The notes beneath the pieces are model-generated. The model was not told the origin of the DNA, searched no databases, and saw only the letters and a program-made list of their open reading frames with translations. Below are positions 15,408 through 53,963 of a stretch of DNA of 64,000 nt, in pieces. Source of the DNA: a virus; IMG/VR virus record IMGVR_UViG_3300027969_003844, positions 41,200-105,199 of that record. One strand, 5' to 3'. The first letter of the stretch is position 1; each line of letters opens with the position of its first letter. A program made the translations under genes and the position numbers.

Positions 15408-16868
15408 CTAAAATATTGAAATCTGATGCAGGTCTTGAAATTTTCTAGCATTTGCCCAGGTGTTGACCAAGGGCTCGCCCTTGATATTTAAACTGGTATT
15501 CATTAATACTGGACACCCACTTGCATCATACCATCTCTCTAGCAATTGTCTGAATACAGGGTTATCAAGACCATTGACTGTCTGAACACGGCTACTGTTA
15601 TCAACATGGCACACTCCCGGTAATATATCTGGTACCTTGCATTGAGCAACAAACTGCATGTAAGGACTAGATACAATTGGCATATCAAAATAATCAGCGG
15701 CATGTTCTTCTAAGATAGCAGGCGCAAACGGTCTAAATTGTTCGCGCTTTTTAATAGTATTCATTCTTGGCTTGGCTTCTTTGCCTCTAGGATCACATAA
15801 TAAACTACGATTGCCTAGTGCCCGTGGCCCAAACTCTGCACGACCATTTGCCACTGCCACCACTTCGCCTGCTAGAAGCTTTTTAACAATACCATCAATG
15901 TCTAATTCTCTATCAATGTTTGTACCCAGATATGGATGTTCCCATTTTAAATGTTGACCAGTATAAGCAGCCACGGCGCCAATTGCACTGCCAGCATCTC
16001 CGGGATTTGGCATTATCCATACATTATTGAATACCTTAGATTTTGCAATCCTACTGTTGGCAACACAATTAAGTGCAACACCGCCCATGAATACTAAATT
16101 TTCACTTGTGGTGTTCATACGCATGTTAATAACAGTTTCCATCAGGTAGTCTTCAACAATGCTTTGTACACATGCGGCAATGGTGAACTTATCAGCAGTC
16201 ACAGGAGGCTTCCACCACAAACAGCCCCTGTGCAAATTGTGTCTTAACTTAAACTTGGGTGCTGAAAATTCAATGAAGAATTCTTTTAATATTTCAGATT
16301 TTAGCAATTGATCAACATGTCCGTATGCTGCCATGCCCATAAGAATATATTCTTCCTCATTGGGTTTGAGTCCCAGGTACTGAGTAAATGCAGAATAAAA
16401 TAGGCCAATGCTGTCAGGATAACGCTTGCGCCATTTAGATTTTATCTTGTGGCCATGTCCTTCCCAAATGCTAACACTATCCCATTCTCCAATTGCATCA
16501 ACAACTAAGATCGCGGCGTTATCAAAGCCACTGGTATAATATCCTGCGGCTGCATGACTTTTATGGTGTTTACCATAATGCAAAGGTATGTTGTTAAGGC
16601 CAACACGTTTTAATTCTTCTTTGGCACTTTCGTAATACGGACGCTGACCAGCATAAAGATTACGTGTACTTTTTAGTAATGGGCTTTCGAACCAGACAAT
16701 GTCAGTGGGAGTACCATAATCAAACATTTCCTGTACCATGTCATAATTTAAAACACGGTCATTTTTATTTCTGCTGTACCGCTCTGCATGTCCAGCCCAT
16801 ACTATACGATTTCCGTTGATAAGAGCTAAACTGGCATCGTGATTTAATCCTGTTGCTCCTAGAATCAT
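15408..16868 (-). CDS. Carbamoyltransferase (NodU/CmcH/TobZ family)
   Basis: NHDAS, ERYSRNKND, HHKSHAA, DAIGE, MGMAAYG, GGVALNC, GDAGSAIG, EFGPRALGNRSLL, FRPFAP, NTSLN. Confidence 0.95.
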   Translation of the reverse strand: MILGATGLNHDASLALINGNRIVWAGHAERYSRNKNDRVLNYDMVQEMFDYGTPTDIVWFESPLLKSTRNLYAGQRPYYESAKEELKRVGLNNIPLHYGKHHKSHAAAGYYTSGFDNAAILVVDAIGEWDSVSIWEGHGHKIKSKWRKRYPDSIGLFYSAFTQYLGLKPNEEEYILMGMAAYGHVDQLLKSEILKEFFIEFSAPKFKLRHNLHRGCLWWKPPVTADKFTIAACVQSIVEDYLMETVINMRMNTTSENLVFMGGVALNCVANSRIAKSKVFNNVWIMPNPGDAGSAIGAVAAYTGQHLKWEHPYLGTNIDRELDIDGIVKKLLAGEVVAVANGRAEFGPRALGNRSLLCDPRGKEAKPRMNTIKKREQFRPFAPAILEEHAADYFDMPIVSSPYMQFVAQCKVPDILPGVCHVDNSSRVQTVNGLDNPVFRQLLERWYDASGCPVLMNTSLNIKGEPLVNTWANARKFQDLHQISIF

Positions 16869-16869
16869 G

Positions 16870-18942
16870 TTAAACTCTTTTCCATTTGCTTATTGAAATG
16901 TCTGCTCCGCAATGGCATCGTAGGCTATTGCAAATAACAGGATTAGATAATGTATTCCAATTAAGCTGGTCAAAATCCTTGACTGTTCCAATTACACCAC
17001 CCACATCACAATTGCCTCGTTTGATATGACCATTTTGATGAATGAACAGACTCTCTACACCAATGTTACAATTAAAATCGTAAAAGTTTGTTTGTCCTCT
17101 GTTAATTAATTCTTGTTCATTGTCAATGATTGCACGACTGCCATCACTGAATGTAGCAGTTGGGCTCCATGGTGGGAATGGACGATATATTGGATTAGTA
17201 ACAGAAATATTGTCAGGCGATGACCGTGTTTCGACTTGCTTAAAATTCTTGAAGAATTGATTTTGTTCTTCAGAATAATTAATTTTGGCCAACTTGGTTC
17301 TAGAACTACCGTATTGATCGTCGATATAAACTAGTTCAATTCTAGCAGTTGTAGTTTTCTTTGCTTGGTCGATAAACTCTAATGTTTCTTCCCAGTACAG
17401 TGGATCCATCATTATACGCAATGACACCATGGTTTGCATTGTGGCAATACGTATGCGATCTAAATAATCTTTGGCTGTGCCATTGGCAAATTCTTGTGCA
17501 GGATGAAAACTACATGCCGCATAGGTCAGATACTTAAAATTTTCTTTAATGAATCGAGGTGTTCTTGCCAGGTTAGTGGTAATGCCAACATTGCCACCCA
17601 AGCTATGTATCTTTTGAACCATTTGAGGGAAGAACGGGCTCATTGTTGGTTCCCCACCACTGAGTGAAAAATTAATGTACTTTCCATCCCAGTGCTCAAA
17701 CATCTTATCCAAGAAAGGTTCAATTTGTTCCCAATTAAACAAATGATTCTTTCCATTATGCAAAGACGATGGACAATATCTACAAGAATAATTACAGATA
17801 TCGTTAAGAATCCAAGTTACTATCACACGCTGTTCATTTTTAACTCCAACAATTTTTTTCCCTTGTACTGGGATTGGAAACTTCCATTGTGGGATTCTTG
17901 CTCTGGGATTTTCAATGCTTGAGTACATTTGAATATCGTCAACAATTTCAACATCCTGAATACTTCTAAATTTATTTAAATTAATGGTAATGCCAGTCAC
18001 TGGAGAATAGATTTTTTCAAGCTGAACATCAACCAATCGTCCAATGCCCATAAAACCATCTCTATTATCTGGGTTGCGCCACTGGTAATCTAAATGCTTG
18101 TCCTCATCAAGTTCTTTGAACTTTTTCCAGTCATTGGTCAATGTGTACGGATCATAGGAGTCGTGGATTAGATAGCATAGTATTTCATTAGACCAAGATT
18201 CTTGACGAGTAATAGAATTGTTATCAACTGCCACTCCATCCCCGTCGGCCACAACCCGGCTTAGATTTTTACCTTCTCCGTTGTAGCCCAGTACAAGATC
18301 ACCAAATCTTAAATGCGACATAAAACTGGCGGCATCTTCGTTGGTGATTTCAAAATCACGGCGTGGATTAAAACTAATTAATAAATTTGCTTCAGTTGAC
18401 GATGTTGTTTCAATTGTGGGCTTCTCATCCGACGCAGATGCTGCCAATGTTTCTGCAATGGTAATGGCATCATTTAGTTGATTAAATGTTGTGTGGAAGT
18501 CTTCGTTGAATGTAATACCTGGCCATTGTAATGCTTCTGGACTATCTGCAGGGATTCGTTGATACGCAGTATCCCACCATTTTTTAGATAACTTTTCTGC
18601 TACTCTTCCTTGATACTCATCAAATTGTTTATACAAATAATCAATAGCAGCCTGGTCGTATTTTTTAAAAATTGTCAATGGCTTGTCATAGAAAAGATTA
18701 ATCTTACGAATGATGTTGGTCAGACGCTCTTCAAATGCCATGTCTTTGGTTAAAAGAGTACGAGTAAATTTAATACGTTTATCCCTGAAACTTTTTTCTC
18801 CAAATTTCATATCTTCCAGTAACTGGCACCATTTAGCAGACAGCTTGGTATTATACAATCTGTAATACAGATCATAACATTCCCAGTTTTCTGGATTTAC
18901 CAATGTAATCCTAACATTTTTATTGTCAATAAACTTTCCCAT
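16870..18942 (-). CDS. Fusion: N-terminal uncharacterised domain + radical SAM + C-terminal twitch/SPASM-like domain
   Basis: CNYSCRYC, SGGEPT, TTNL, CNIG...GNC...C...CHC; start MGKFI with GAGG RBS. Confidence 0.88.
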   Translation of the reverse strand: MGKFIDNKNVRITLVNPENWECYDLYYRLYNTKLSAKWCQLLEDMKFGEKSFRDKRIKFTRTLLTKDMAFEERLTNIIRKINLFYDKPLTIFKKYDQAAIDYLYKQFDEYQGRVAEKLSKKWWDTAYQRIPADSPEALQWPGITFNEDFHTTFNQLNDAITIAETLAASASDEKPTIETTSSTEANLLISFNPRRDFEITNEDAASFMSHLRFGDLVLGYNGEGKNLSRVVADGDGVAVDNNSITRQESWSNEILCYLIHDSYDPYTLTNDWKKFKELDEDKHLDYQWRNPDNRDGFMGIGRLVDVQLEKIYSPVTGITINLNKFRSIQDVEIVDDIQMYSSIENPRARIPQWKFPIPVQGKKIVGVKNEQRVIVTWILNDICNYSCRYCPSSLHNGKNHLFNWEQIEPFLDKMFEHWDGKYINFSLSGGEPTMSPFFPQMVQKIHSLGGNVGITTNLARTPRFIKENFKYLTYAACSFHPAQEFANGTAKDYLDRIRIATMQTMVSLRIMMDPLYWEETLEFIDQAKKTTTARIELVYIDDQYGSSRTKLAKINYSEEQNQFFKNFKQVETRSSPDNISVTNPIYRPFPPWSPTATFSDGSRAIIDNEQELINRGQTNFYDFNCNIGVESLFIHQNGHIKRGNCDVGGVIGTVKDFDQLNWNTLSNPVICNSLRCHCGADISISKWKRV

Positions 18943-18958
18943 TTTAGCCTCTAAAATT

Positions 18959-20191
18959 TTATATATCAAGTAATTTTGTGTAGTCTGTGCCATGCAGGCG
19001 ATCAAGACCCTGTAGGTAATCCAGTGTTTGTGGGTACAAGTGACTCCAGTCTTCCGAATTCATAAATGTAATTAATCCAGCAAGTCTTTGCATTTGTACG
19101 TTCTTGGGATAACTTGCAAAATATGTTTCTAGTTTTTCCGTTACACGTTTTTTCATTTCTATTGGCAATACCTTGACACAAAGATATTGTGGCCAATGCA
19201 ATGTACCTGGATAGAATATGCCACCAATATTACTTTTACGAACCTTGTCAAGATTTAGGTTTAATAACCATTCGGACATTTCTGGCAACCAATTTATATT
19301 CAATGCTTGAACAGTGCATAACACTTTGACAATGATATTGTCTGGAGTGTCATTGTATAATTTTAAATTACGTTCAACCACTTCCCACTTGGCCGGACGA
19401 CGAATGTAATCATTGACCCAATCGTAACCATCAATACTGAGCATTAGTTCTACTTGCTTAAAGCTTTTCCAAAGCTCAACAATTTCTGGATTGTGTATAG
19501 TACAATTGGTATGGTAACGAAGTGTGATATTTTTAGCTAAATCACGTGCAACCAACTGTTCGATGATTGACTTGTGTTCTTTGATGTACAGTGGTTCGCC
19601 ACCACCAAAAATAATGTGTTGTATAGAGCTTGCATTTTCAAAGAAATCATCCCAAAATACTGGATCTTTATACCACTCAAACTGTTCGGCGGCATAGTTT
19701 TCAATTTTATATTTCCACTCATGTCTTGCGTCAGTTTCTAATGTTTCACTGAGTGTTTTTGCGTCCTTGACCCATTTGCTCGAGTCCTGTGGCCGACACA
19801 TTACACATTGTAGATTACATGTATTACCAAGTCGTAAATCTAGTGTAATCAAATCATGATCAACACGACCATTGCGGCGTGTACTATCAACTAGACCATC
19901 TAGGTACTCTGCATCCAAGTGCTTGTACCAGTATTGATTTTCGTTTTGCCTGTGACTTTTGATACCAGCAGATTCTTCTTTGTAACAAGTGGTACATGCA
20001 GGGAACTCACGTCCATTTAGCATTGCCAGTCTGGCTTCTGCAAAATGACTACTGTTCCAAATCTGTGACCAATTTGATTTATTTAGATTTAAGTTTGAGG
20101 CCTTGGCCACACAACATAACAATGCTGTACCATCATTATAAGTTGCCGCATGTATCCAAGGTAGAATACAAAAAGTTTTAGATTTATCCAT
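18959..20191 (-). CDS. Radical SAM protein with N-terminal twitch domain (subfamily A)
   Basis: FCILPW..CC..CTTC; LDLRLGNTCNLQCVMC; GGGEP; YHTN; SIDG. Confidence 0.92.
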   Translation of the reverse strand: MDKSKTFCILPWIHAATYNDGTALLCCVAKASNLNLNKSNWSQIWNSSHFAEARLAMLNGREFPACTTCYKEESAGIKSHRQNENQYWYKHLDAEYLDGLVDSTRRNGRVDHDLITLDLRLGNTCNLQCVMCRPQDSSKWVKDAKTLSETLETDARHEWKYKIENYAAEQFEWYKDPVFWDDFFENASSIQHIIFGGGEPLYIKEHKSIIEQLVARDLAKNITLRYHTNCTIHNPEIVELWKSFKQVELMLSIDGYDWVNDYIRRPAKWEVVERNLKLYNDTPDNIIVKVLCTVQALNINWLPEMSEWLLNLNLDKVRKSNIGGIFYPGTLHWPQYLCVKVLPIEMKKRVTEKLETYFASYPKNVQMQRLAGLITFMNSEDWSHLYPQTLDYLQGLDRLHGTDYTKLLDI

Positions 20192-21482
20192 TGATCAATT
20201 CTGCTATTCTGCTATCAAGTACTGTGACATCTTGTTCCCTGCTTTTGTCCAGGCTTTTTGTATATGTGCGTAAACGTTGCAATTGTTCTTCCCAGTCATC
20301 GGCTCTTGGTTGTTGTAATAGACCAATTATACCATTAACACTATTACGGGTTAATTCATGTACATTCTTAGGCATCTGATTGTCTCGATAATCCATTAGT
20401 AATTGACACGCTTTGGCTTTAAGATCGTCAGGTAATATGTTTACATTGAGATGATAAGGATGATAATTTATAAGCAGGTCAACAAAAATATCTTTATTGT
20501 GTTTTTTGTTGAGCTCGTCTACCCATAACAACGTTTCAACTAGATTAAAAACATTATAAACCTGCACCGTTGGAGTCACACCTAATTTGACATTTGATAG
20601 CTCTGCAATCTTCTCTACGTTTGCACTCAACTGACTCCACTTACTTGGCGCACGAATGTAATCATTTACAGCACCAATTCCGTCTAAGCTGGCATTAATA
20701 TTAATTTCATCAAATTGACTGATAATATCAAGAAACTTTTTATTAACGTTGGTACAGTTTGTATTAAAAAATAATAAAATATCTTTGCGACCTTGGTCAA
20801 TACAAGATTGCATAAATTTAAAATTGTTGCCAATAAGTGTTGGCTCGCCTCCGGTCATATAGACTTTCTTTAATTCTGGAATTAATGCGATAATCTGGTC
20901 CCATAACACATCGCTTTCAAACCATTCCTGTTGATCCATGACTGATATAGGAAACTTTCCAAATGCTTTACGCCAAACTTGTCCGTATGCTGGGTCTGTT
21001 TCTGTAAGCTCTAAGTGTTCCTTGGCAATCTGACTAGAATTCCATGGGTTGCACATTCTACATTTGAGATTGCACAAGTTGCCTAATCGCAAATCCAAAT
21101 ACACCAAATCAGAATTAACTACGCCACCGTGTATTTTTGCATAACGAACACGTTTGGCCAATTCTTCTTCGCCTAATCTCCAGGCCCATTCATTGTTTGC
21201 ATGTATTCTATTACTGTCTCGACCCGAATCTTCTTGAAGATAACAGACTTTACAACCTTCAATGTTATCACCATTGATCATTGCAGTACGAATATCACGC
21301 ATGTCTTGTCCGTTCCATGCATGTTCAATAAACTGATCCTGGATAGTAAAGAATTTACCATCCTCTTTTTTAAGTTTGTTGGCCGCGCCTTTCACCATGC
21401 AACAATACCGTACAGTTGCATCTGTATTGACCATTAGGCTAACAAAAGGAATAGCGCAAAACGTTTTTGAAATTGGTTTCAT
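20184..21482 (-). CDS. Radical SAM protein with N-terminal twitch domain (subfamily A)
   Basis: FCAIPF..CC..CKVC; CNLKCRMC; TGGEP; NTN; SLDG. Confidence 0.92.
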   Translation of the reverse strand: MKPISKTFCAIPFVSLMVNTDATVRYCCMVKGAANKLKKEDGKFFTIQDQFIEHAWNGQDMRDIRTAMINGDNIEGCKVCYLQEDSGRDSNRIHANNEWAWRLGEEELAKRVRYAKIHGGVVNSDLVYLDLRLGNLCNLKCRMCNPWNSSQIAKEHLELTETDPAYGQVWRKAFGKFPISVMDQQEWFESDVLWDQIIALIPELKKVYMTGGEPTLIGNNFKFMQSCIDQGRKDILLFFNTNCTNVNKKFLDIISQFDEININASLDGIGAVNDYIRAPSKWSQLSANVEKIAELSNVKLGVTPTVQVYNVFNLVETLLWVDELNKKHNKDIFVDLLINYHPYHLNVNILPDDLKAKACQLLMDYRDNQMPKNVHELTRNSVNGIIGLLQQPRADDWEEQLQRLRTYTKSLDKSREQDVTVLDSRIAELING

Positions 21483-21509
21483 TAAACTAAGCTTTAAAGA
21501 TTTGTCTTT

Positions 21510-21516
21510 TACTTAT
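21510..21516 (-). promoter_or_regulatory. Late-like promoter motif (TCG)ATAAGTA inside the rSAM island
   Basis: Same TCGATAAGTA at 35266; resembles T4 late TATAAATA. Confidence 0.45.
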
Positions 21517-21554
21517 CGACAAACTTTATTACGAGTTAGCCAGTAAGATGACAA

Positions 21555-23048
21555 TTATGATGTGCGCGAATCTTCAACAGCAATTTGGTCTTGCCATGTA
21601 TAATCAAGATTCTTGGTTACAATTACATTATTATCAAAATCAACAAGTTCAAGCTTGCAAACATCGTCGTACTCAAACAATTCACGCATGAAATTTTCAG
21701 GATCCGGATCAGACCAATCATCGCGTACAATACGTGCCACTGGAATTTTTCCAATGCTGGTAAACTTACTGTCTGGATCAACGTTTCTTTCGCGTAACCA
21801 TGGGAACATTTTTCTGTTTAAATTGTCAATAAGTTGTGTTTGTAATGCATAACTGTGTTCATGCAAAAACGTAATATTGCATTCGCCACTTAGGTAGCGT
21901 AACCCACTGATGTTCTCATCATGAATTTCTCCGTCTTTGTCATAATACGCTTCCAATGGAGTTTTGCCAAGTTGGCAATAGTGCAAGAGTACATCGCCAA
22001 AGAATTCATATTGTGTAAAATTATCAAAATCGCTTTCAACAAATTTATAACGCTTGACTGGCATAGCAGGCAAAAATACATGGGCATTCCAATACCCTTG
22101 TCCCAATGAGTTTTGTCTATTGCCTTCTATTTCATGACACAAGTTATTGAGCTGTCGAATTGCAAACATAATAGGTAATGGCGAATTGGTAAAGTATCTT
22201 GAAGGATTCCATACCTGCCCAATTAGTAATTCAAAATGATGATGGATCTCATTGAGAATTTGTTGATCTAGAGTGATAGAATCAAACACCTGTGTAATAT
22301 TATAATATGGACGAGTATCTTCATTGCTGCCATCAAAATACTCATTGATTTTACCAATGTACTTGTTTAACTCGTTACACAGGCCTGGAATGTTTCTGGC
22401 AATTGAACTATCATCTCTATACGTCCAGTTCTGTAGCATAAAGTACTTTTCAAACTTGGCTTCGTCAACGCTTAGATAATCATTGTGACAACACCTGGCC
22501 CACTTTTGTGCAATAAAAGAAGTATTAATTTTAAATCGTACTTTCTTTGTTGCGCCGGTATCAACTGCTCTAAAGGTCAACTGAAATTCATTGTATTTTG
22601 TATTTTCGTATGCACTGCCAATGGCTTCGACAATTGCACCATCTGTGGTAATTTCCGTACTAAACAATCTAGTGCGTCGTACACGGTCAACATGTTCATA
22701 ATCTACCAACCAAAGAAAATTGTTGACATGACATTGAGATTCTAAATCATCAAAGAATTCTTGACTGTCGGCTATAAAGAAAGATTGATATATGCTGTTG
22801 CAGTATTTCCAAAATTCATCAAAGACCTGCCGTTCGTTGAAGTAATGAATTAAATTATCAACTTTGCCATCGGGATTTGCCAATGCTTCTTTAATAAAGT
22901 TAATTTCACTTTCAGCATCACATAGAAAAATTAAACGAGTGTTTGAATCTCGTTGTAGTGTTGCAAATGCTAATAGTCCAGGCAGAGACACACCATAAAC
23001 ATAATAGTTCTCAACATAGGTTTCGGGATTTGTAAATTGTGTTTGCAT
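21555..23048 (-). CDS. Uncharacterised protein; C-terminal part paralogous to 26178-27119 and to the N-terminus of 16870-18942
   Basis: IAQKW, LNEIHHHFE, LNNLCHEIE, FGDVLLHYCQLGK. Confidence 0.8.
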   Translation of the reverse strand: MQTQFTNPETYVENYYVYGVSLPGLLAFATLQRDSNTRLIFLCDAESEINFIKEALANPDGKVDNLIHYFNERQVFDEFWKYCNSIYQSFFIADSQEFFDDLESQCHVNNFLWLVDYEHVDRVRRTRLFSTEITTDGAIVEAIGSAYENTKYNEFQLTFRAVDTGATKKVRFKINTSFIAQKWARCCHNDYLSVDEAKFEKYFMLQNWTYRDDSSIARNIPGLCNELNKYIGKINEYFDGSNEDTRPYYNITQVFDSITLDQQILNEIHHHFELLIGQVWNPSRYFTNSPLPIMFAIRQLNNLCHEIEGNRQNSLGQGYWNAHVFLPAMPVKRYKFVESDFDNFTQYEFFGDVLLHYCQLGKTPLEAYYDKDGEIHDENISGLRYLSGECNITFLHEHSYALQTQLIDNLNRKMFPWLRERNVDPDSKFTSIGKIPVARIVRDDWSDPDPENFMRELFEYDDVCKLELVDFDNNVIVTKNLDYTWQDQIAVEDSRTS

Positions 23049-23049
23049 G

Positions 23050-23151
23050 TTAGTAAATGAAAGGATCCTGTTTTTTCAACTCTTTCAGACGCCTTTTGTA
23101 TCTGCGCTCGGCCTTGATTCTTTCAATGATGTTTTTAATAAAATTCCACAT
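23050..23151 (-). CDS. 33-aa basic peptide MWNFIKNIIERIKAERRYKRRLKELKKQDPFIY
   Basis: AGGA RBS before the ATG at 23151; fills the gap between neighbouring genes. Confidence 0.75.
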   Translation of the reverse strand: MWNFIKNIIERIKAERRYKRRLKELKKQDPFIY

Positions 23152-23161
23152 TGTATATTTC

Positions 23162-24052: not shown

Positions 24053-24054
24053 AA

Positions 24055-26174: not shown

Positions 26175-26177
26175 TGT

Positions 26178-28362: not shown

Positions 28363-29708
28363 TATTGGCCTGTAATGAATGGTTTCATGTCTATATATTC
28401 AGGAAAGACCTCAAAGAAATCTTCTTTTCTATTTTTGTCAAGCCACAACTCGCGATTCCATCCACCTCGTATCCAATCGTCTGTTCTAGCAGGGACTTTT
28501 AATAGATCTATTGCACTTCGATACCCACTTGCGGCACCGTCAAGAGATCTATTCCATTGTATATCAGACTCAGCATCTGACGTGACACGTTTAAAAGTTT
28601 CTAACCAGGCAATTTGCTCGTTGTACAGTGCAGTCAGATTGGCCTTGTGATTGTCGGGTAAGTTAGAAATACACCAGTGTTCTGGACCAAATAATAAGTT
28701 AATAATAATATCACCAGGTTGAATATAACTAAGATTGACCCATTCCTTATGGAACTCTGCAATGTTATATGCTGTCATCATGCTTAAAGTTGCACCAATG
28801 ACAAATTTAACATGTGGCACTTCGGCTATCATTCGTTTTCTATTTTCAATGACCTGTTGCCATGACAAATTTTTACGTGCATATTCGCCTCGACCATAGC
28901 TGCCATCTAGGCTAGCAGAAACTGTTACTCTGCTAAACTTTTTCCAGTATTCAATTACATCAAACTTGGCATGAGTTAACTTGCTGAAATTTGTATTATA
29001 AAAAATATCAATATCTGTGTTTCCTAGGTCCAAGAAGTAATCTAAGATCTCATAATGCTGTGGCATGATTAGAGGCTCGCCGCCTGCAAAATAAATTCGA
29101 TGACAACTTCTCAAATTCTGTTTTAAACTTTCAACAGGCACGCCGGCCTTTCTAAATCTAGTTAAATTGTCATTGACTATAATTCCAGCATCAAGCATTG
29201 CTTGTTCTTCAGGAAACCAAGTCGAGCTATATTCTGGACCACAAGATCTGCATCTTAAATTGCAGGTGTTATCAAATCTTACATCTAGATAATTTATCTC
29301 AGGTTCGGCAACTGTATAATCTTCATTGACAGAGTTGCGAATATTATCATCAACTTTCCAAGTATTCATCCATCCCATCATTGCTTGACGCATACTATGA
29401 GTATTAACTGCTTCGCCTTTCCAGCAGTAGTTACATTGCGAATTTTTTACACCGTTCAATAAGTCTTTGCGTAGTTCTTTAAAAGACTCGCTGTTGTATG
29501 CATTGACAATGCTTTCGTTTGTTGTACCTTCAATCCTGGACAATGATCTTCTAGTGGCTGATTTATGCACACAACATGCCGCTAAACTACCATCTGTGTG
29601 AATGTAGTAAGAGTTAAATGGTGCTGGACAAAATGCACCATTGTTCTTGATCTTGTCCCATTCTGCATCTGTAAATTTTAATTTTTTAGTCATTGTCGTT
29701 GGTCTCAT
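28362..29708 (-). CDS. Radical SAM protein with N-terminal twitch domain (subfamily A)
   Basis: FCPAPF..CC..CNYC; CNLRCRSC; FAGGEP; YNTN; SLDG. Confidence 0.92.
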   Translation of the reverse strand: MRPTTMTKKLKFTDAEWDKIKNNGAFCPAPFNSYYIHTDGSLAACCVHKSATRRSLSRIEGTTNESIVNAYNSESFKELRKDLLNGVKNSQCNYCWKGEAVNTHSMRQAMMGWMNTWKVDDNIRNSVNEDYTVAEPEINYLDVRFDNTCNLRCRSCGPEYSSTWFPEEQAMLDAGIIVNDNLTRFRKAGVPVESLKQNLRSCHRIYFAGGEPLIMPQHYEILDYFLDLGNTDIDIFYNTNFSKLTHAKFDVIEYWKKFSRVTVSASLDGSYGRGEYARKNLSWQQVIENRKRMIAEVPHVKFVIGATLSMMTAYNIAEFHKEWVNLSYIQPGDIIINLLFGPEHWCISNLPDNHKANLTALYNEQIAWLETFKRVTSDAESDIQWNRSLDGAASGYRSAIDLLKVPARTDDWIRGGWNRELWLDKNRKEDFFEVFPEYIDMKPFITGQ

Positions 29709-30915
29709 AACGTGGCAACAGTCCTCTGATATAGTCTAATATCTCTGGTGCAACAAAGTGTCTAGTTTTTTGTTCTCGTGACAAGTCAACCAAATAAAAT
29801 TTATTATAAATTGTTATTAGTTCGTTGTTGCTTGGCAAACGGCTGTTCATATGATTAATCAGTCCCTTGATCACTTCCTTGTCAAGAGCACTTTTATTCC
29901 ACTTGTCTTCAATGAGGTCTTTGGCACCGTCGGGCAATGCCCATAGAGCCATGTGTGCCGGGCTATGAATCAAATTGTACCAAATTGCAAAGGTAGGAGT
30001 ATTGGTTTGTATCCATTCAACAAATTTAGGCAAGTCCCAGGCATTGATCCAACCAATGGTGTGACTAATAGAAATATTTGTGTTGTCTAACTCTCCATTG
30101 GCCTTCATTGCATTGTACTTGATTAGGTTTTCTTGTACTTCATCCCATTTACCAGGATAACGAAGATAATCATAGGTTCGACCAAGACCGTCAATGCTTA
30201 GGCCTAATCCAACTGATTTAAAATTGTCGTTTAGGAATTTAACACGCTCTCCAGAAAAGATTGTGGCATTTGAACTTAATGAAATATTAATTTCCTTACT
30301 ACGGCCACTGGCCACAAACTCATCCCATATATCATTCCATTGCTGAATATAAAATGGTTCGCCACCTACGATTTCTAAGTTTTGTACATGTTGCATCCAC
30401 TCATGTCTATTTTTCCAAAGTAATCCATTCTTGTCACCGCTTTGACTAAATTTCATTTCGTAACCAGTGTTGCCGTAAATTTTCTTGTGTTCGGCTTGCC
30501 ATAGATTACTGTGACTTGGTGAACAACTACGACACTTTAGATTACAAGCATTGTTGATAATCATTTGATATTCATATGGCAGGCCCGGCTCAGCATCAAA
30601 GTCAACTATTGACTCATAGGTGTTATCTACATTTCTGGTATAAATCTGACGCTTGCTTTTGTGGCCATTGTTTTCGTCAATGATGCATGTTTCGCATGCC
30701 AGTGGCTTTTTGCCATCACGGAAATCCTGGCGTAACTTCTTCATGTAGTTACTGGAAAATATTTCCGTTACTGTATTAGTTTGAACATGCATGAACTCGC
30801 CATTGTCATCCTTAATGTAGTCTTTGTAAAGACAGCAGGGACGAACTTTACCGTCAGGATCGTTACTAAATCCCGTCCAGGGCAGGCTACAAAGCCATTT
30901 TTTAGATTGAGTCAT
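29686..30915 (-). CDS. Radical SAM protein with N-terminal twitch domain (subfamily A)
   Basis: LCSLPW..PCC..CETC; CNLKCRSC; VGGEP; SIDG. Confidence 0.92.
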   Translation of the reverse strand: MTQSKKWLCSLPWTGFSNDPDGKVRPCCLYKDYIKDDNGEFMHVQTNTVTEIFSSNYMKKLRQDFRDGKKPLACETCIIDENNGHKSKRQIYTRNVDNTYESIVDFDAEPGLPYEYQMIINNACNLKCRSCSPSHSNLWQAEHKKIYGNTGYEMKFSQSGDKNGLLWKNRHEWMQHVQNLEIVGGEPFYIQQWNDIWDEFVASGRSKEINISLSSNATIFSGERVKFLNDNFKSVGLGLSIDGLGRTYDYLRYPGKWDEVQENLIKYNAMKANGELDNTNISISHTIGWINAWDLPKFVEWIQTNTPTFAIWYNLIHSPAHMALWALPDGAKDLIEDKWNKSALDKEVIKGLINHMNSRLPSNNELITIYNKFYLVDLSREQKTRHFVAPEILDYIRGLLPRYETNDND

Positions 30916-32257
30916 ACCAGTTTATAAACCTTTGATCCAGTGATTCACGGAAATTCTTATTTCGTCTTTTGTCATATTGTGCCACGTATGATTTTAAATC
31001 TTGCAGGGCATCTTCTTCTCTTACATGCTGTTCCCATTTAACATTTGTTTCTGACATGTTAATAATTAGCCGTTCAACGTGGGCAATTTCTGTGTCGTGA
31101 CATAAGCTTTTGTTTTCATTTAGCCATGCAGTAAATTCATTGACCAATTGCATTCTCAACTCAAGTGGAATAAGTTGAACACGCATAAATGCTGGTGAAT
31201 GAACAAAGTTACAATTAAGCTCAACTCTTAACTGACCGTATTTAATCTTAAGGTCTTTGATCATATTTAGATAATCAATCATTGACCATACGCCAAGATT
31301 ATTAATGCTTGTGGTAAAGTTTAATCTATTAATAACATAGCTTGGACTTTCAAGAACTGTGATTACATTCTTCATCCATACATCGCCGTCAAACCCATCT
31401 CGAATGTATTCAGTTTGTAGCAATGAACTTTCAATACTAGTATGCAACACTGTTCTAAAATTGCTACCTACTGCATCAAGCAAACGCTGTAGCACATCTT
31501 CTTTGCAAACAAGATTGGTGTTAATAGAAAGGTCCTTGTTGAATTCGCCTTCTTTTAATCTATCCAGGAATCGCCAAAAGTTTGGACTCATTGTCGGCTC
31601 TCCGCCAGTGACTCGCAGCCACTTTAAGTCTTTTTCTAGCGTTGGCAACCAGTTGAAAAATGCTTCTACGTATGGATTTTCTCCCTGATCAATCATGTCG
31701 TCATCATTTGATGTTATGTAACGTCGATCAGTGATTAGTCCTTCATATGGTCCGTGATTCTTGATATCATTGGCCCATTTGGTGCTAAAAGCTGGACCAC
31801 AGTATGCACATGCCAAATTGCAAATTCTATCAAACGCAATCTCTAGCATATAAGGATTGGTTGTCAATGGTTGGCCGCCAGTGGCCCATTGATGCAATTG
31901 CTTGCCTGGTACCGCCTGTGTTTTAATATAGCGATCACTAAGGCCGCCATCAGCTTCAATACTCCAGCAATAATTACAGCCACTGGGCTTTTCGCCGTCG
32001 AGCATGGCCTGACGTTCTCTCATTTTTTGCGGAGTGTTTTGTAGACTCGACGGATCGTTAGGATCTAATTCAATTTTATGAAATGGATTGTGATGGCAAC
32101 TGGCTGTTGCACCTTGATACAACCAAATTGTACCTTCAAACCATTTAGCCCCACAAAAACTAGGGCTAATCTTGTCCATATGCTCTTCTTTAAAGATTTT
32201 AAATCGAGCAGTTTCTCCTGTTTGATGATTTGATAAGTCTGCCATATTAAAGTTCAA
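30902..32257 (-). CDS. Radical SAM protein (subfamily B)
   Basis: CGAKW..SCHH..CNYCW; CNLACAYC; TGGEP; NTN. Confidence 0.92.
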   Translation of the reverse strand: MNFNMADLSNHQTGETARFKIFKEEHMDKISPSFCGAKWFEGTIWLYQGATASCHHNPFHKIELDPNDPSSLQNTPQKMRERQAMLDGEKPSGCNYCWSIEADGGLSDRYIKTQAVPGKQLHQWATGGQPLTTNPYMLEIAFDRICNLACAYCGPAFSTKWANDIKNHGPYEGLITDRRYITSNDDDMIDQGENPYVEAFFNWLPTLEKDLKWLRVTGGEPTMSPNFWRFLDRLKEGEFNKDLSINTNLVCKEDVLQRLLDAVGSNFRTVLHTSIESSLLQTEYIRDGFDGDVWMKNVITVLESPSYVINRLNFTTSINNLGVWSMIDYLNMIKDLKIKYGQLRVELNCNFVHSPAFMRVQLIPLELRMQLVNEFTAWLNENKSLCHDTEIAHVERLIINMSETNVKWEQHVREEDALQDLKSYVAQYDKRRNKNFRESLDQRFINWYDSI

Positions 32258-33641
32258 TCCCGTTGTACCAATCTGCTAGTCCCGGAAATGCCTCAGTGAA
32301 ATTCTTACCACGACGTTGATCATATTGCTGATAGAAACTCTTGAAATCCTTTTCAAGTTTTTCTCTTTCATATGCACCAGTGTGTGGAGTTTTAACAACA
32401 TCGAGATAATCAATAACTCGTTGTGTTTGATTAATTTCCATTTGATGTAATTTTATATCATCTCTATCTTTGTTGTTGTCAAGCCATAGTTGTAACCTGT
32501 CCTTGCGTACCTGACGCATTTCATCTGGTAACACTGTTAAACTTTGAAAACTAGGGAATCGTAAAAAGTTTAAAGTAAACACGCCAAAGTCTCTTCCGTA
32601 TTGTTTTTTAAATTCTACAACCCAATCTAAAAATTCAGGAAGACTTTCTAAGCAAAGTAAATTAATTGTACACATGATATGCAATGCTCTGAAACGTCCA
32701 CTGCTGGCAAGCTTATGCATATTCATTTTCCACTGCTCGTAATCAAGTCCATCCCGGATGTACTCAGCTTGTAAGCCAATGGATTCATTGCTGGTATAGA
32801 TTTGCAAATCATCAATGTACTGAGCTCGGTCAATTAGTCTATCAATTAATTCGTCTTTGCCGCCAAGGTTGCTATTAACTGCCAACCGCATATTGGGATT
32901 ACGAGTATTTTTAGGATCTGCAAACCAGTCCAATAAACGCCAGGTATGCGGACTCATCAATGGCTCGCCACCAGTGATACGAAGTTCGTACAGTGTACGA
33001 TGTAAATCACTTTCCCACCATTTAAAGAATGCTTCAATGTAAGGATTGCTTGGGTCATGGTCATATACACCAGCTGACTCATGCAAGTGATCAAAGTGTC
33101 CTCGACCATCTGTGTATAATTTTGTGTAAGGACCAAACTTCTTTAAATCATTTACCCAAGTTGTACTAAATGCTGGATTGCAATAAGAACATGCAAATTG
33201 ACATGTACGATCAAAAGCAATTTCTAATGTACGCAAGTCAACATCATTGTTATAGTCACCCTCCCATGCTTCTTTTAAAAGTTCTTCAGTGTAGATTTCA
33301 CTTTTATAAACTCGATCACTGATGTTGTCACGACCAATGTCTTCAACTTTCCAGCAGTACTCACATCCTGACGGACGCTCGCCATCTTGCATTTGTTTTC
33401 TCTCATTTTTCTTATGAGCTGTATTATGAATAGCCTTAGGATTGAATTTGATCTCTTTAAGATCTGCTTGGTGAGGCAATGGGTGATGACAGCTAGTGGT
33501 TTGGCCGCTGCCTAGCCAGATAGTAGAATTATACCACTTGGCCAGACATAAACTTTTACTATGACTATCTAGTAATTTTTTAACTCCATGGTCTGACGCT
33601 TGAATTTCTCTAATTGATAATGGTTGATTTTGTGTTGTCAT
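32247..33641 (-). CDS. Radical SAM protein (subfamily B)
   Basis: CLAKW..SCHH..CEYCW; CQFACSYC; TGGEP; NSN. Confidence 0.92.
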   Translation of the reverse strand: MTTQNQPLSIREIQASDHGVKKLLDSHSKSLCLAKWYNSTIWLGSGQTTSCHHPLPHQADLKEIKFNPKAIHNTAHKKNERKQMQDGERPSGCEYCWKVEDIGRDNISDRVYKSEIYTEELLKEAWEGDYNNDVDLRTLEIAFDRTCQFACSYCNPAFSTTWVNDLKKFGPYTKLYTDGRGHFDHLHESAGVYDHDPSNPYIEAFFKWWESDLHRTLYELRITGGEPLMSPHTWRLLDWFADPKNTRNPNMRLAVNSNLGGKDELIDRLIDRAQYIDDLQIYTSNESIGLQAEYIRDGLDYEQWKMNMHKLASSGRFRALHIMCTINLLCLESLPEFLDWVVEFKKQYGRDFGVFTLNFLRFPSFQSLTVLPDEMRQVRKDRLQLWLDNNKDRDDIKLHQMEINQTQRVIDYLDVVKTPHTGAYEREKLEKDFKSFYQQYDQRRGKNFTEAFPGLADWYNGIEL

Positions 33642-35233
33642 TATTGTTTTCCTGAAATATATTTAGAACTTTGTTCACTTAAAATGTATAACTCTTCTAA
33701 CTCTGGAAATGTTTTTCTAAAGTCTGTGCCGCGTCGCTGATCGTGTTGCGTTACAAATGCAAAGAAATCTGCTCGCGCTAATTGTAGTTTATCTGTTGAT
33801 AAAGGTTGTATTGCCCAATCGTACAAACGTTGTACTTTGTCAATTTCAAAGTCTTTAAATCCTTTGTATGGATTTTCTGAAGTTTCAATGTTTTCTTTCA
33901 TGAACTTGATTGACTCAAGTAACACATCAAAGTAATGTGACGGCAGTAATTTTAAACTTAGCCAAACAGGATCGTTTAGCATTGGAACATCAAACCATAC
34001 CAATTGGCGAGTAGTATTAAATTCTTGACGCAAACGCAAGATATTTTTTACATATTCCATCCAACCAGGAATACTGAGTGCATTAAAAGTAACAATTAAA
34101 TTCAAGCTATGCTTTTTGCCCACTTGCAAATACGTTGATATGTTTTTATGAAGCATTTCAAAGTCTAAGCCAAACCTGCCGTATTCAGCCTGAGGTCCCC
34201 AAGAGTCTAAACTGCAATATAGCATAAAGTGATCAATTGCATTTTTTGTTTCTAGCTCGTTTAACGAAGTTAAAAATTTATCCCACTGATTGCCAGGTGG
34301 GCAACAATTCGACGTTATGCTAAGATGTAAGTCATCTCCCTTGGGATTTGCCGCAACATAATCAAATACCTTAAAGGTATTTTTATCCATCAGTGGCTCG
34401 CCACCAGTCATACGGAATGTTTGTAATGTTGGATAAATTGTTGGGAACCATTCCCAGAATGCTAGCAGATAAGGATTGTCTGGTCCATTGTTTGGAATCA
34501 TGTTTTCATTTTTCATCCAAACTGTGTCGTTATGCTTGCGGCCATTGCTTAATAGATAAGGACCGTATTTGTCAATTTCTTTATGCCATTCAGTGCTTAG
34601 ATGCGGACTACAATAAGAACATTTGAGATTGCAGGCCTGATTGAAATTTACTTCAACATATTTTGGCGTTGGATCTCCGTTGTACCCATCTTTTACTACT
34701 TCATTGAGTATACCAGGGCGCCAAACATCTTTACTACGATATGCACGATCACTGAGCATTTCACCGCTGTCTTCAATTTCCCAACAAAAATTACACTCGT
34801 CTGGTCTTACACCATTGAGCATTTTCTTGCGCTGTTCTTTTTTAAATTTGGTGTTATGAATAGCACCAGAGTCTGCTTGAATTTCTTCTAATGGAATCTT
34901 GTGTGCTGGAGGATGATAACAACTATGAGTCTTTCCAGTGGGAATGTGAATGCTTACATTGTACCATTTGGCAAGGCACATGCTGGGGCTAATCTCATTG
35001 AGAATCTTGAATACTTTCTTTGTATCTTCAAGGTAAACACTCTTGGCAACACCATTTGTAGTAATAGTGCCATCACCTTTTACTTGTTGCAGGTCACCGC
35101 GAAATTCTGCTTTTTCGTCGTCAGACATATAAGCATACAACTTAGGTTCAACCAACTTTGCAATTCGTTGCTTGGCTAGGTCTTCGTTGCTGTTGCCTAG
35201 TTGTTTTGTTTTTAATTTGTCAAAAATATTCAT
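33641..35233 (-). CDS. Radical SAM protein (subfamily B) with N-terminal extension
   Basis: CLAKW..SCYH..CNFCW; CNLKCSYC; TGGEP; TSN. Confidence 0.92.
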   Translation of the reverse strand: MNIFDKLKTKQLGNSNEDLAKQRIAKLVEPKLYAYMSDDEKAEFRGDLQQVKGDGTITTNGVAKSVYLEDTKKVFKILNEISPSMCLAKWYNVSIHIPTGKTHSCYHPPAHKIPLEEIQADSGAIHNTKFKKEQRKKMLNGVRPDECNFCWEIEDSGEMLSDRAYRSKDVWRPGILNEVVKDGYNGDPTPKYVEVNFNQACNLKCSYCSPHLSTEWHKEIDKYGPYLLSNGRKHNDTVWMKNENMIPNNGPDNPYLLAFWEWFPTIYPTLQTFRMTGGEPLMDKNTFKVFDYVAANPKGDDLHLSITSNCCPPGNQWDKFLTSLNELETKNAIDHFMLYCSLDSWGPQAEYGRFGLDFEMLHKNISTYLQVGKKHSLNLIVTFNALSIPGWMEYVKNILRLRQEFNTTRQLVWFDVPMLNDPVWLSLKLLPSHYFDVLLESIKFMKENIETSENPYKGFKDFEIDKVQRLYDWAIQPLSTDKLQLARADFFAFVTQHDQRRGTDFRKTFPELEELYILSEQSSKYISGKQ

Positions 35234-35265
35234 TCGCGTTGGTTACCGTGCTAAAATTATAAAGG

Positions 35266-35272
35266 TACTTAT
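35266..35272 (-). promoter_or_regulatory. Late-like promoter motif (TCG)ATAAGTA
   Basis: Intergenic, heads the 15408-35233 run of coupled genes. Confidence 0.45.
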
Positions 35273-35291
35273 CGAGTTAAATTTGAAAAGT

Positions 35292-36557
35292 TTACTCAGA
35301 TAAGTTTCTATTATACTCGAGTATGGTTTCCATGTCGCGTACTAATTTTGGAAGATTTTCCCTCCACGAAGTTTTTCTAACAGTGTCTTTTTTATCAAGT
35401 TGCCTCATCTGCATTTCAAGTTGAGGAACTATCACCCATTTATTATGATTAGGATGATTTTTAAGTGGGGCTAAAAATTCCTTAAAGGCTCTTCTTCTCT
35501 CTGCAATAGTAAAATGGTCAAAGAAGGGATTGGTAAAATTTTCACTTAAATCTTCTACTTCACGTATTGCTTCCTCTCGCATTGCAGGGGTTAGCACATC
35601 AGTTGAAAGACCTATTGGATAAATCATTGGACCAAAATTAATACGACATCCATTGTTACTGGTCATTCCATCTATCCAGTTTGAAATCTTTCCTATCATT
35701 CTGTAGTTTCCTAGTCCAACTGTTACTGTAAATTGCAATTGAATATGAGGACCTTTACGTTTTAATAATGTTTGTACATTTGATGCAAATTCCTTTGCAT
35801 CAAGTCCGTAACGAAGTTGTTCTCCCCATTTGTCAAATCCATCAACACTGACTGACAGCACAATTGGACCGTTTATCTTATTCCACATATCTATTAGATC
35901 GTAGTGTTTATAAGTCAAATGACTGAAGTTGGTATTGTAAAATAATTCAATGCGTTGTTGGCTATCAATGAACATTTGTAAAAGTTCATAATGATGTTCT
36001 GCTATGGTTGGTTCACCACCTGCAAAGTAAATTTTTTCAATATCTCTATGAAACTCTTTTATTTCATTTAAAACTTTATCACCATCAACATTAATAATTG
36101 GGCTGTCAAGTTTTGTAACTTTAATGCGTTTATCTTCTACTGCATGAGCAGAGCTGTACTTTTCACCACAACCAATACAAGCAAAATTGCATTTGTTAGT
36201 AAATCTGTAGTCTAAATATAATTGTTTAAATTCTGCATGTCCAGATGGCTCAGGTTCTAGCAAAGATATAAATTTTTTCCAACGATTATTTTGATTTTGT
36301 CGCAGTGAGGTTCTGCCAGATGTTTCGAACCTGGTACATGCCGCGCACTCTTTTGGCAAGGAATCAGCAGTAAGCATCTGCTGTCTAATTTCATTGTATT
36401 TTGGACTATGAAAGATCTCCTTTAAGGTATTGTCTTTCAAATTACCCATTGGGGTAGGCGCAGTAAGGCAACAAAGATTTACACTGCTATCTGGATCAAT
36501 TTCTGTGTGCATCCATGGTAGAACGCAAAATGCTTTTGGTAGATTATTATAATCCAT
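35292..36557 (-). CDS. Radical SAM protein with N-terminal twitch domain (subfamily A)
   Basis: FCVLPW..CC..CAAC; CNFACIGC; FAGGEP; YNTN; SVDG; start MDYNN with AAGGA RBS. Confidence 0.92.
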   Translation of the reverse strand: MDYNNLPKAFCVLPWMHTEIDPDSSVNLCCLTAPTPMGNLKDNTLKEIFHSPKYNEIRQQMLTADSLPKECAACTRFETSGRTSLRQNQNNRWKKFISLLEPEPSGHAEFKQLYLDYRFTNKCNFACIGCGEKYSSAHAVEDKRIKVTKLDSPIINVDGDKVLNEIKEFHRDIEKIYFAGGEPTIAEHHYELLQMFIDSQQRIELFYNTNFSHLTYKHYDLIDMWNKINGPIVLSVSVDGFDKWGEQLRYGLDAKEFASNVQTLLKRKGPHIQLQFTVTVGLGNYRMIGKISNWIDGMTSNNGCRINFGPMIYPIGLSTDVLTPAMREEAIREVEDLSENFTNPFFDHFTIAERRRAFKEFLAPLKNHPNHNKWVIVPQLEMQMRQLDKKDTVRKTSWRENLPKLVRDMETILEYNRNLSE

Positions 36558-36565
36558 GTTTATTC

Positions 36566-36598
36566 CTTTAGTCGAGGTATTTAGCACCTCGACTAAAG
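36566..36598 (-). promoter_or_regulatory. 13-bp perfect hairpin overlapping the RBS, with a TAAATA late-like motif in the loop
   Basis: Minus strand CTTTAGTCGAGGT-GCTAAAT-ACCTCGACTAAAG-GAATAAAC-ATG. Confidence 0.7.
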
Positions 36599-36604
36599 TA
36601 TTGA

Positions 36605-37493: not shown

Positions 37494-37680
37494 TTTTTGA
37501 ATCCTTATCCTTATCAATTATTTCAATATGATCATATCGATGTTTTTCATTGGCAATAAGACTGTCAACTTCTAGCCAGTTAAAACAAAGTTCAGTGCGT
37601 GTTATTTGTAACTCTGCTCCTTCGTGCAGTCGCCGAAAAAACCTTACTTCAATTATATTAATACCACTTGCTTTCATCAT
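37480..37680 (-). CDS. Hypothetical protein
   Basis: Coupled small ORF (MMKASG...); start uncertain. Confidence 0.45.
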   Translation of the reverse strand: MMKASGINIIEVRFFRRLHEGAELQITRTELCFNWLEVDSLIANEKHRYDHIEIIDKDKDSKNVSF

Positions 37681-37936: not shown

Positions 37937-37938
37937 TG

Positions 37939-38633: not shown

Positions 38634-38642
38634 TATATGTCC

Positions 38643-53934: not shown

Positions 53935-53963
53935 TACTGTACTTAATGAAAAAGTTTGGGGTA

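Follow-up and report, generated by a model that had tools for sequence, protein, structure and literature searches.

Why does a phage carry a long run of radical S-adenosylmethionine (SAM) enzymes, and on what do they act? The question is raised by a 64-kb window of DNA, bases 41200-105199 of the 105-kb IMG/VR contig IMGVR_UViG_3300027969_003844. CheckV estimates the completeness of the contig at only ~32%, and it is therefore regarded as a fragment of a huge phage. Within the window, which supplies all coordinates below, a 21-kb island of 17 co-oriented minus-strand genes extends from 36587 down to 15408 (Table 1). A reading made from the sequence alone (hereafter the sequence-only reading) had described this island as a candidate new system for tailoring a glycan, a protein or a peptide. 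Comparison with related loci and structural models establishes that the island is a real, intact, widely conserved and uncharacterised tailoring system. For brevity, genes are referred to by their lower coordinate where this is unambiguous.

Ten diverged paralogs of one radical SAM family

Nine island proteins and a further copy at 38643 match the NCBIfam model NF033640 (N_Twi_rSAM, twitch domain-containing radical SAM protein) over nearly its whole length, at 257-370 bits against a cut-off of 170 bits. In these N_Twi proteins, a SPASM/twitch-like Cys domain precedes the CxxxCxxC core, and four to five Cys residues stand before CxxxCxxC in all ten. In five of them, about residues 8-96 fit the SPASM model of Pfam, with Radical_SAM afterwards. 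Two other radical SAM (rSAM) proteins, 16870-19005 and 53041-53973, fall below the NF033640 cut-off. The former is a fusion whose two halves are separate, adjacent genes in loci L060 and L069. CxxxCxxC, GGEP and four to five auxiliary Cys residues are kept in eleven proteins, namely the ten N_Twi proteins and the fused short rSAM, while 53041-53973 has CxxxCxxC and C-terminal Cys residues but no GGEP-like motif. The sequence-only reading had counted ten island rSAM enzymes with CxxxCxxC plus auxiliary Cys, and two more at 38643 and 53041. This count holds: nine NF033640 members and 16870-19005 make up the island set with motifs intact, and both extra genes are present, the one at 38643 being an N_Twi gene (285 bits). 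A PDB sequence search gave no match for the 53041 rSAM or for the short rSAM half of 16870.

The N_Twi paralogs are mutually only 19-36% identical (BLAST) and occupy long, separate branches in the tree. Several have their own orthologs in other genomes, and for several window paralogs these are Bdellovibrionota genes with 40-57% identity. Orthologs of 33641 occur in Bdellovibrionota at 35-46% identity, genes of one Bdellovibrionota island (L164/L165) share 50-57% identity with 32247, and 38643 is 49% identical to a Bdellovibrionota gene in L164. A word-indexed search with 18959 returned 487 homologs. The intact motifs, low identity, long branches and separate orthologs suggest that the paralogs have distinct, retained functions. 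Sequence comparison thus indicates that the N_Twi set consists of old, maintained, different enzymes rather than the products of a recent tandem amplification.

The phage IscU and A-type Fe-S carrier, encoded beside the 53041 rSAM, probably supply clusters for the twelve rSAM enzymes. This arrangement echoes that of rSAM-rich marine phages, which also have IscU and A-type carrier genes (PMC5332604). Homologs of the 53041 short rSAM accompany N_Twi genes in bacterial loci.

Partner domains and their fusions

Three island proteins share a domain here called X: 26178-27119, 21555-23048 (in its C-terminal part) and 16870-19005 (as its N-terminal half). The first two are the stand-alone proteins that had earlier been singled out for their His/Glu motifs, and they are 26% identical over about 230 aa (BLAST). 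In an alignment of 27 X-domain proteins, cleaned of fused rSAM and AspH parts, H112, E116, H140 and E143 are conserved on two helices. In the rSAM-fused copy, both motif His residues are replaced (H to Y, H to T). The AlphaFold2 (AF2) model of 26178-27119 has a predicted local distance difference test (pLDDT) score of 82.6 and a predicted template modelling (pTM) score of 0.81. Foldseek found no match for this model in the PDB, and the Atlas was likewise empty for X. Exhaustive structural alignment describes the fold as a cyclophilin-like beta-barrel with an inserted helical bundle (Z 7.5-9 over 130-150 aligned residues). Searched with a profile, 1.84 billion representatives yielded 1107 clusters with X.

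The 2-oxoglutarate (2OG)-Fe oxygenase of the sequence-only reading is an AspH-like enzyme that matches PF05118 above the cut-off, with the triad H181-x-D183, H229 and also R239 invariant in 20 homologs. Its nearest solved relative is Cpz10 (E 1.7e-4, PDB sequence search), a beta-hydroxylase acting on a nucleoside-antibiotic intermediate (PMC9814697), and AspH-like family membership therefore does not imply a protein substrate. The adjacent Y protein (24789) had been called 'GT/MTase-like', and its AF2 model (pLDDT 79) confirms this at fold level. Residues 1-240 match many GT-A glycosyltransferases (Z 9-10.6), also by Foldseek, and residues 241-458 match class I methyltransferases (Z 8.6-11.5). 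No characterised member of X or Y was found in the PDB or the literature.

A census of the 150 best X-domain cluster representatives revealed recurrent fusions: 10 X-AspH-Y, 2 X-AspH, 1 X-X-AspH, 1 X-X-AspH-Y, 1 X-Y, 1 Y-X and 5 X-rSAM. A natural X-AspH-Y fusion is encoded, for instance, at L085:11094-14282. In an Atlas cluster of Y-resembling viral proteins of 688 aa, PF05118 is present in 97% of members, a lead-level association (feature score 0.84). Other genomes often encode X, AspH and Y as a single polypeptide, and the three are therefore likely to work together as a unit. In one phage group, Y is fused to a B12-binding rSAM domain (~1170 aa; L037:13872-17384, L048, L050, L052, L053), and this likely adds a C-methyltransferase-type rSAM to the core of that group.

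A conserved core and a variable shell

Relatives of the island were retrieved with an alignment of 18959 homologs, which yielded 80 loci in viruses and as many in species-representative genomes; a locus search of viral contigs with a single sequence had found nothing. Among 50,697 phage records, megablast of the island gave no match, and tblastn of 18959-20191 gave only four weak hits (Vibrio phages K566/K567, Ralstonia phage RsoM2USA and a marine virus single amplified genome, SAG).

Comparison of these 160 related loci brings out a conserved core. The 20184-like and 18959-like genes are adjacent in most of the viral loci and many of the bacterial ones. After this pair, many viral loci have X, a short rSAM to which the C-terminal half of 16870 is homologous, the AspH-like oxygenase and Y. 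The N_Twi genes of a 177-kb phage record scored 100% complete are the core pair only, and in a contig from a close relative of this phage (L001) all nine island N_Twi copies are colinear. The core comprises two N_Twi enzymes (20184, 18959), X, the AspH-like 2OG oxygenase and Y, and it spans 177-kb phages to Bdellovibrionota chromosomes. Extra N_Twi paralogs, of which this phage has eight that diverged anciently, the short rSAM, which is fused here to a degenerate X domain, the carbamoyltransferase with its micropeptide ending in DPFIY, and the SGNH-like protein form a variable shell.

In T4-like marine loci, two GT8-like genes (glycogenin-related, E 3e-7) and fibre-like genes precede the module; one of the fibre-like genes has a Peptidase_G2 intramolecular-chaperone domain, and others are Ser/Thr/Gly/Asn-rich. 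This context agrees with the published 'host recognition cluster' of pelagimyophages, which holds rSAM cassettes and glycosyltransferases (PMC7029224), and an AspH-like gene is core to these phages (PMC5332604; PMC7029224). A family upstream in the T4-like loci, c1, had no match in a PDB sequence search. UDP-glucose-dehydrogenase (UGD)-like genes are present in 14 viral loci.

Within the shell, the carbamoyltransferase occurs in 15 of the 80 viral loci. Its assignment to the TobZ/NodU type is secure: both Pfam domains lie above their cut-offs, and its PDB matches are NovN (the closest, 1.7e-60), then GdmN and TobZ (1e-43). It scores 141 bits with the NodU equivalog model, whose cut-off is 1000, and is therefore a member of the family rather than NodU itself. 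The 33-aa peptide noticed earlier is 23050-23151. Homologs of it are found in 15/15 carbamoyltransferase-bearing viral loci, abutting the gene in 11 and lying about 0.8-6 kb off in 4, as well as in two more loci that are cut off at the locus end. They are absent from about 63/80 viral loci that have the rSAM pair. The peptide tracks the carbamoyltransferase and not the rSAM enzymes, and so we read it, on its sequence and distribution, as a probable carbamoyltransferase accessory rather than an rSAM substrate. Its likeness to the SxtK/DUF5989 partners is confined to the C-terminal PFIY-type ending and the adjacency to a carbamoyltransferase; in seven such micropeptides, Pfam gave no SxtK/DUF5989-type match even at E up to 10.

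The SGNH assignment of 23162-24052 stands only in part. The N-terminal GDSFTAGEE motif is there, but of the four SGNH blocks (GDS, G, GxND, DxxH) only this GDS is clear, and the protein has no SGNH-type Pfam match (the sole line being a sub-threshold Chitin_synth_2) and no PDB sequence match. Elsewhere in the window, a 142-aa protein (41534-41962, minus strand) that starts MIDCLILGDSIAVGT and has DGVHPT resembles, by eye, a minimal SGNH hydrolase.

Cellular relatives in Bdellovibrionota

The cellular loci found by a pattern-seeded locus search are almost all from Bdellovibrionota. When further genomes were scanned, NF033640 was detected above its cut-off in 25/120 Bdellovibrionota (up to 11 copies), in 1/150 Bacteroidota and in 0/14 controls. 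Across 121 Bdellovibrionota genomes, 8/9 of those positive for X are also positive for N_Twi, a statistic that ignores shared ancestry.

One genomic context is that of Bdellovibrio sp. HCB2-146, in which the N_Twi copies lie in a 36-kb polysaccharide locus (NZ_JBLEQP010000001.1, about 1.858-1.895 Mb) that holds 5/11 GT2 genes of the genome. Here, one N_Twi gene overlaps a UGD-like gene, with epimerase and DegT genes after it. Further members of the locus are another UGD gene, genes for a GDP-mannose-dehydratase-like protein, a polysaccharide lyase and a fatty-acid hydroxylase, and an X-domain gene. The pairing of polysaccharide lyase and fatty-acid hydroxylase with N_Twi recurs in a second genome. 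Two further genomes have DegT genes at most 20 kb away from N_Twi genes, and three others do not. Overall, sugar genes stand beside the module in about half of the inspected Bdellovibrionota genomes.

What the pathway may act on

Our reading is that the island encodes a cytoplasmic pathway of soluble enzymes for building and editing a sugar-bearing molecule, and we give a sugar-directed activity, the most likely kind, a little better than an even chance. The context in T4-like phages, the polysaccharide loci of Bdellovibrionota and the types of enzyme all point to sugars. Accordingly, of the substrates considered in the sequence-only reading for its multi-enzyme tailoring line, a sugar or glycan is the best-supported class, given the kin of the carbamoyltransferase, the folds of Y, and the GT8 and nucleoside diphosphate (NDP)-sugar/GT2 contexts. 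NovN, the closest relative of the phage carbamoyltransferase, is an enzyme that, by its PDB name, carbamoylates decarbamoylnovobiocin. The pathway is placed in the cytoplasm, on a soluble substrate, because hydrophobic segments of the kind expected for transmembrane helices are missing from every island protein (all look soluble in the hydrophobic-segment scan) and no flippase, polymerase or initiating transferase was recognised in the island.

The observations made here concern gene content, intactness of motifs, folds, fusions, co-occurrence and genomic context, whereas a sugar substrate, a reaction for each enzyme and a final acceptor are our inference, as follows. Each rSAM enzyme would generate a 5'-deoxyadenosyl radical, with its N-terminal auxiliary [4Fe-4S] cluster as an electron conduit, and would make one C-H-directed edit on the sugar. 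Candidate edits are oxidation, epimerisation, deoxygenation and C-C/C-methyl chemistry. Hydroxylation would fall to the AspH-like oxygenase, transfer and/or methylation to Y, O-carbamoylation to the carbamoyltransferase and the handling of acyl groups to the SGNH-like protein, with Fe-S clusters coming from the phage's own IscU and IscA. As final acceptor, virion fibre proteins, a precursor of a host envelope glycan and a free metabolite are all conceivable.

A more specific and rather unlikely scheme makes X-AspH-Y a hitherto unrecognised protein-glycosylation machine that would hydroxylate a residue, attach a sugar and methylate it. The N_Twi array would then rewrite the C-H bonds of that sugar, and large phages and predatory Bdellovibrionota alike would use this common kit to diversify or disguise the fibres and surface structures that they bring into contact with their prey. 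If this scheme is true, the ten paralogs would represent up to ten new radical reactions on carbohydrates.

Decoration of the virion had previously been proposed on the grounds that late-type signals control the island, and this argument is not sustained. The T4-type late promoter TATAAATA is under-represented, with 2 copies in the 64-kb window (52270, 63865) against 5.7 expected and none near 36600, and scans for sigma-70 promoters and terminators do not rise above shuffled sequence. On this contig, the island has no structural gene as a neighbour. The families co-conserved upstream in T4-like loci (fibre-like c5/c9, GT8-like c2, c1 and c3) are all absent from this contig, and so fibre or GT8-like neighbours cannot be used here to argue for virion decoration.

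Several observations weigh against a sugar-directed pathway. Sugar genes adjoin the module in a minority of loci (18/80 viral and 19/80 bacterial in a BLAST test), there is no NDP-sugar synthesis gene within the island, and the nearest clear glycosyltransferase (GT4, 47610-48620) lies 11 kb away. No DxD motif is conserved in the Y alignment, and a glycosyltransferase activity of Y is therefore not established. The N_Twi proteins have no PDB relatives beyond a weak match to SkfB, and no NF033640 member with an assigned reaction was found in the PDB or the literature. The co-occurrence statistics leave genome kinship out of account. Peptides are frequent substrates of twitch/SPASM rSAM enzymes, and the AspH family contains protein hydroxylases. 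Members of this family hydroxylate Asp/Asn in proteins and in ribosomally synthesised peptides with post-translational modifications (RiPPs) (PMC12186529).

The last of these points also favour direct modification of a protein or peptide, in which the rSAM and AspH-like enzymes would crosslink, epimerise or hydroxylate residues in a protein of the phage or its host, in the manner of RiPP maturases and anSME-type enzymes, and sugars would not be central. The Pfam SPASM/twitch model does match the N-terminal domain, there are weak secondary NCBIfam matches to the peptide maturases PapB, YhhB and mycofactocin maturase, the X barrel is cyclophilin-like, and fibre-like proteins stand directly upstream in T4-like loci. 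However, none of the curated maturase models comes close to its cut-off, and no precursor-like gene, RiPP recognition element (RRE), leader peptidase or exporter was recognised in the island, nor any Ser/Cys-tailed or repeat protein within 36600-41600. The nearest solved relative of the AspH-like enzyme works on a small nucleoside rather than a protein, and bacterial rSAM genes overlap NDP-sugar genes. The RiPP alternative of the sequence-only reading is further weakened by the behaviour of the sole micropeptide, which follows the carbamoyltransferase and not the rSAM enzymes. On this evidence, direct protein modification is quite unlikely. Slightly lower is the probability that we assign to a diffusible secondary metabolite, an aminoglycoside- or nucleoside-like antibiotic, signal or host-takeover effector, as opposed to a decoration. 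Such a product has to be considered because the closest characterised homologs (NovN, GdmN, TobZ, Cpz10) are all natural-product tailoring enzymes. Aminoglycoside pathways have a comparable enzyme mix, combining twitch rSAM enzymes (BtrN, NeoN, AprD4), B12-rSAM methyltransferases, a carbamoyltransferase, a 2OG oxygenase and DegT aminotransferases. The joining of Y to a B12-binding rSAM in some loci and the solubility of all island proteins are also in keeping with a metabolite. Against this, no scaffold-forming enzyme (cyclitol synthase, nonribosomal peptide or polyketide synthase (NRPS/PKS), nucleoside-forming enzyme), exporter or self-resistance gene was recognised in the island or related loci, and the context is one of glycosyltransferases and fibre genes in phages and of O-antigen-type genes in bacteria.

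The tailoring of glycans on phage DNA is very unlikely, although phages are known to hypermodify their DNA with diverse glycans, according to Pyle et al. (2024) as cited in PMC12619734. A nuclease (14566-15381) and a DNA ligase (42390-43706) are encoded near the island, and missing genes mean little for this explanation because the contig is only about a third of a genome by its CheckV estimate. Nevertheless, a ThyA-like hydroxymethylase is absent both from the contig and from a phage record scored 100% complete that has the core module (G009), which weakens the DNA-hypermodification alternative of the sequence-only reading. In addition, the cellular homologs lie in chromosomal polysaccharide loci, and Pfam/NCBIfam scans detected no DNA-binding or base-flipping domain in the island.

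Relation to known systems

As the sequence-only reading had said, no characterised pathway with the composition of the island was found in the literature or the PDB, and no characterised N-terminal-twitch rSAM or Bdellovibrio rSAM pathway was found in the literature. The closest entry is NF033640, with which the ten proteins share an N-terminal Cys domain followed by CxxxCxxC and GGEP. That entry is a catalogue item without an assigned reaction, whereas here a single phage carries ten paralogs of it that have diverged deeply and are linked to a defined set of partners (X, AspH-like and Y). The BtrN-type twitch enzymes of aminoglycoside pathways likewise have an rSAM core and one auxiliary Cys-ligated cluster domain. 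They also keep similar company, namely carbamoyltransferase (TobZ, by PDB match), 2OG oxygenase, methyltransferase and aminotransferase-type genes. In contrast to theirs, which is C-terminal, the auxiliary domain of the island enzymes is N-terminal; the island also lacks a significant match to solved twitch enzymes other than the weak one to SkfB, and it has no cyclitol-forming gene. The carbamoyltransferase shares both domains with NovN, GdmN and TobZ and matches them at E 1e-43 to 1e-60, but with 486 aa it is shorter than these (576-700 aa), and the viral members are always accompanied by the DPFIY micropeptide.

The X-AspH-Y fusions recall human LH3/PLOD3 with ColGalT1, in which a 2OG oxygenase is joined to a GT-A-fold domain. 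ColGalT1 and LH3 are among the fold matches of Y, with an overall template modelling (TM) score of about 0.2 and Z about 10 for the GT-A part. The likeness is at the level of fold and architecture only: the island oxygenase is of the AspH type and not a lysyl hydroxylase, and the island system adds a methyltransferase-like domain and X. The rSAM cassettes of marine T4-like phages share with the island their many rSAM genes, IscU/A-type carriers and glycosyltransferase neighbours (PMC5332604; PMC7029224). Those reports only list the genes and do not go on to assign a family, define a core module or partner domains, or suggest a function. This phage belongs to another lineage, and its island is not beside fibre genes on this contig.

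The earlier label 'candidate new system' is thus apt in that no characterised pathway was found, but the rSAM family was already catalogued (NF033640) and phage rSAM cassettes had been mentioned (PMC5332604; PMC7029224). New here are the dissection of core and shell, the X/AspH/Y/rSAM fusions, the folds of X and Y, the link between peptide and carbamoyltransferase, the strong bias towards Bdellovibrionota with a cultured carrier, and the negative late-promoter result.

A catalogued and unstudied rSAM family is present in ten diverged copies within one phage, and its partner set is widely conserved and includes a ~300-residue domain without a Pfam model in over 1000 sequence clusters. To our knowledge, sugar-acting radical SAM enzymes are few, and each characterised one has brought new chemistry. 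The distribution of N_Twi (25/120 Bdellovibrionota against 1/150 Bacteroidota) links phages and bacterial predators by a common tailoring kit. Bdellovibrio sp. HCB2-146 offers a cultured, potentially genetically tractable carrier, and the identity of the product would reveal how large phages chemically diversify a sugar-bearing structure.

Operon layout and neighbouring genes

Nearly every gene of the window is on the minus strand. The open reading frame map bears out the earlier description of 17 co-oriented, mostly overlapping genes: most junctions in the island are overlaps or gaps of 1-14 nt, the larger gaps being 58 nt (35234-35291) and 72 nt (21483-21554). The first gene, 35292-36587, probably starts at the ATG near 36548, which lies behind AAAGGA, rather than at the GTG at 36587. 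A hairpin at 36557-36598 (dG -23.6 kcal/mol, z -6.9) is equalled by 0/200 shuffles. It spans the ribosome-binding site of this first rSAM gene, and its loop has only TAAATA.

Table 1. Coordinates of the island genes, associated genes and hairpin in the window.
Feature	Position	Strand	Evidence and remarks
O-carbamoyltransferase, NodU/TobZ/NovN type	15408..16868	-	Carbam_trans_N 159.2 bits, Carbam_trans_C 179.5 bits
X domain (both His lost) + short rSAM with C-terminal Cys, 711 aa	16870..19005	-	Radical_SAM residues 400-524; X profile match
Core N_Twi rSAM B	18959..20191	-	NF033640 369.6 bits
Core N_Twi rSAM A	20184..21482	-	NF033640 359.7 bits; clade support 1.0
~160-aa N-terminal extension + X domain, His motifs kept	21555..23048	-	X profile E 2.8e-20
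33-aa basic micropeptide ending DPFIY	23050..23151	-	Sequence read; no Pfam family
SGNH-like protein, motif-level call	23162..24052	-	N-terminal GDSFTAGEE
AspH-like Fe(II)/2OG oxygenase	24055..24849	-	PF05118 46.7 bits vs 22.6-bit cut-off
Y protein	24789..26174	-	GT-A-like N-terminal fold + class I methyltransferase-like C-terminal fold; no Pfam family
X domain, stand-alone, His/Glu motifs intact	26178..27119	-	No Pfam family
N_Twi rSAM paralog	27106..28362	-	NF033640 258.4 bits
N_Twi rSAM paralog	28362..29708	-	NF033640 320.4 bits
N_Twi rSAM paralog	29686..30915	-	NF033640 274.4 bits
N_Twi rSAM paralog	30902..32257	-	NF033640 257.6 bits
N_Twi rSAM paralog	32247..33641	-	NF033640 311.6 bits
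N_Twi rSAM paralog, ~80-aa N-terminal extension	33641..35233	-	NF033640 318.1 bits over residues 82-516
N_Twi rSAM paralog, first operon gene	35292..36587	-	NF033640 272.9 bits; Pfam SPASM residues 21-85, then Radical_SAM; CNFACIGC, GGEP
Hairpin	36557..36598	-	Between upstream gene and first rSAM; overlaps Shine-Dalgarno region
Tenth N_Twi rSAM, 2 kb upstream of island	38643..39932	-	NF033640 284.8 bits
A-type Fe-S carrier (IscA)	52323..52643	-	Fe-S_biosyn 68 bits; follows IscU
IscU	52627..53016	-	NifU_N 176 bits; directly downstream of 53041 rSAM
Short rSAM of another type	53041..53973	-	Radical_SAM 46.9 bits

On the downstream side of the island, just beyond the carbamoyltransferase, lie a DNA/RNA non-specific endonuclease (14566-15381, minus strand), which has an N-terminal hydrophobic segment and is syntenic in the related contig L001, and an FG-GAP repeat protein (13370-14503, minus strand). 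Between the island and the tenth N_Twi gene is a DUF3307 protein (37110-37517, minus strand) with one hydrophobic segment. In L067-L069, a homolog of the neighbouring gene 38220-38633, with 42% identity, stands upstream of the rSAM pair.

ARAGORN found no transfer-messenger RNA (tmRNA) inside the window, which has six tRNA genes within 56529-63815 (Arg-tct, Leu-tag, Ser-gct, Ser-tga, Ile-gat and Cys-gca). A DUF6492 protein is encoded at 57022-57888. The GT4 glycosyltransferase gene (47610-48620, minus strand) is accompanied by that of a calcineurin-like phosphoesterase (48636-49391, minus strand). Two genes encode SleB-type cell-wall hydrolases (Hydrolase_2; 11695-12375 and 46991-47545, minus strand), homologs of which recur in related viral loci (cluster c18).

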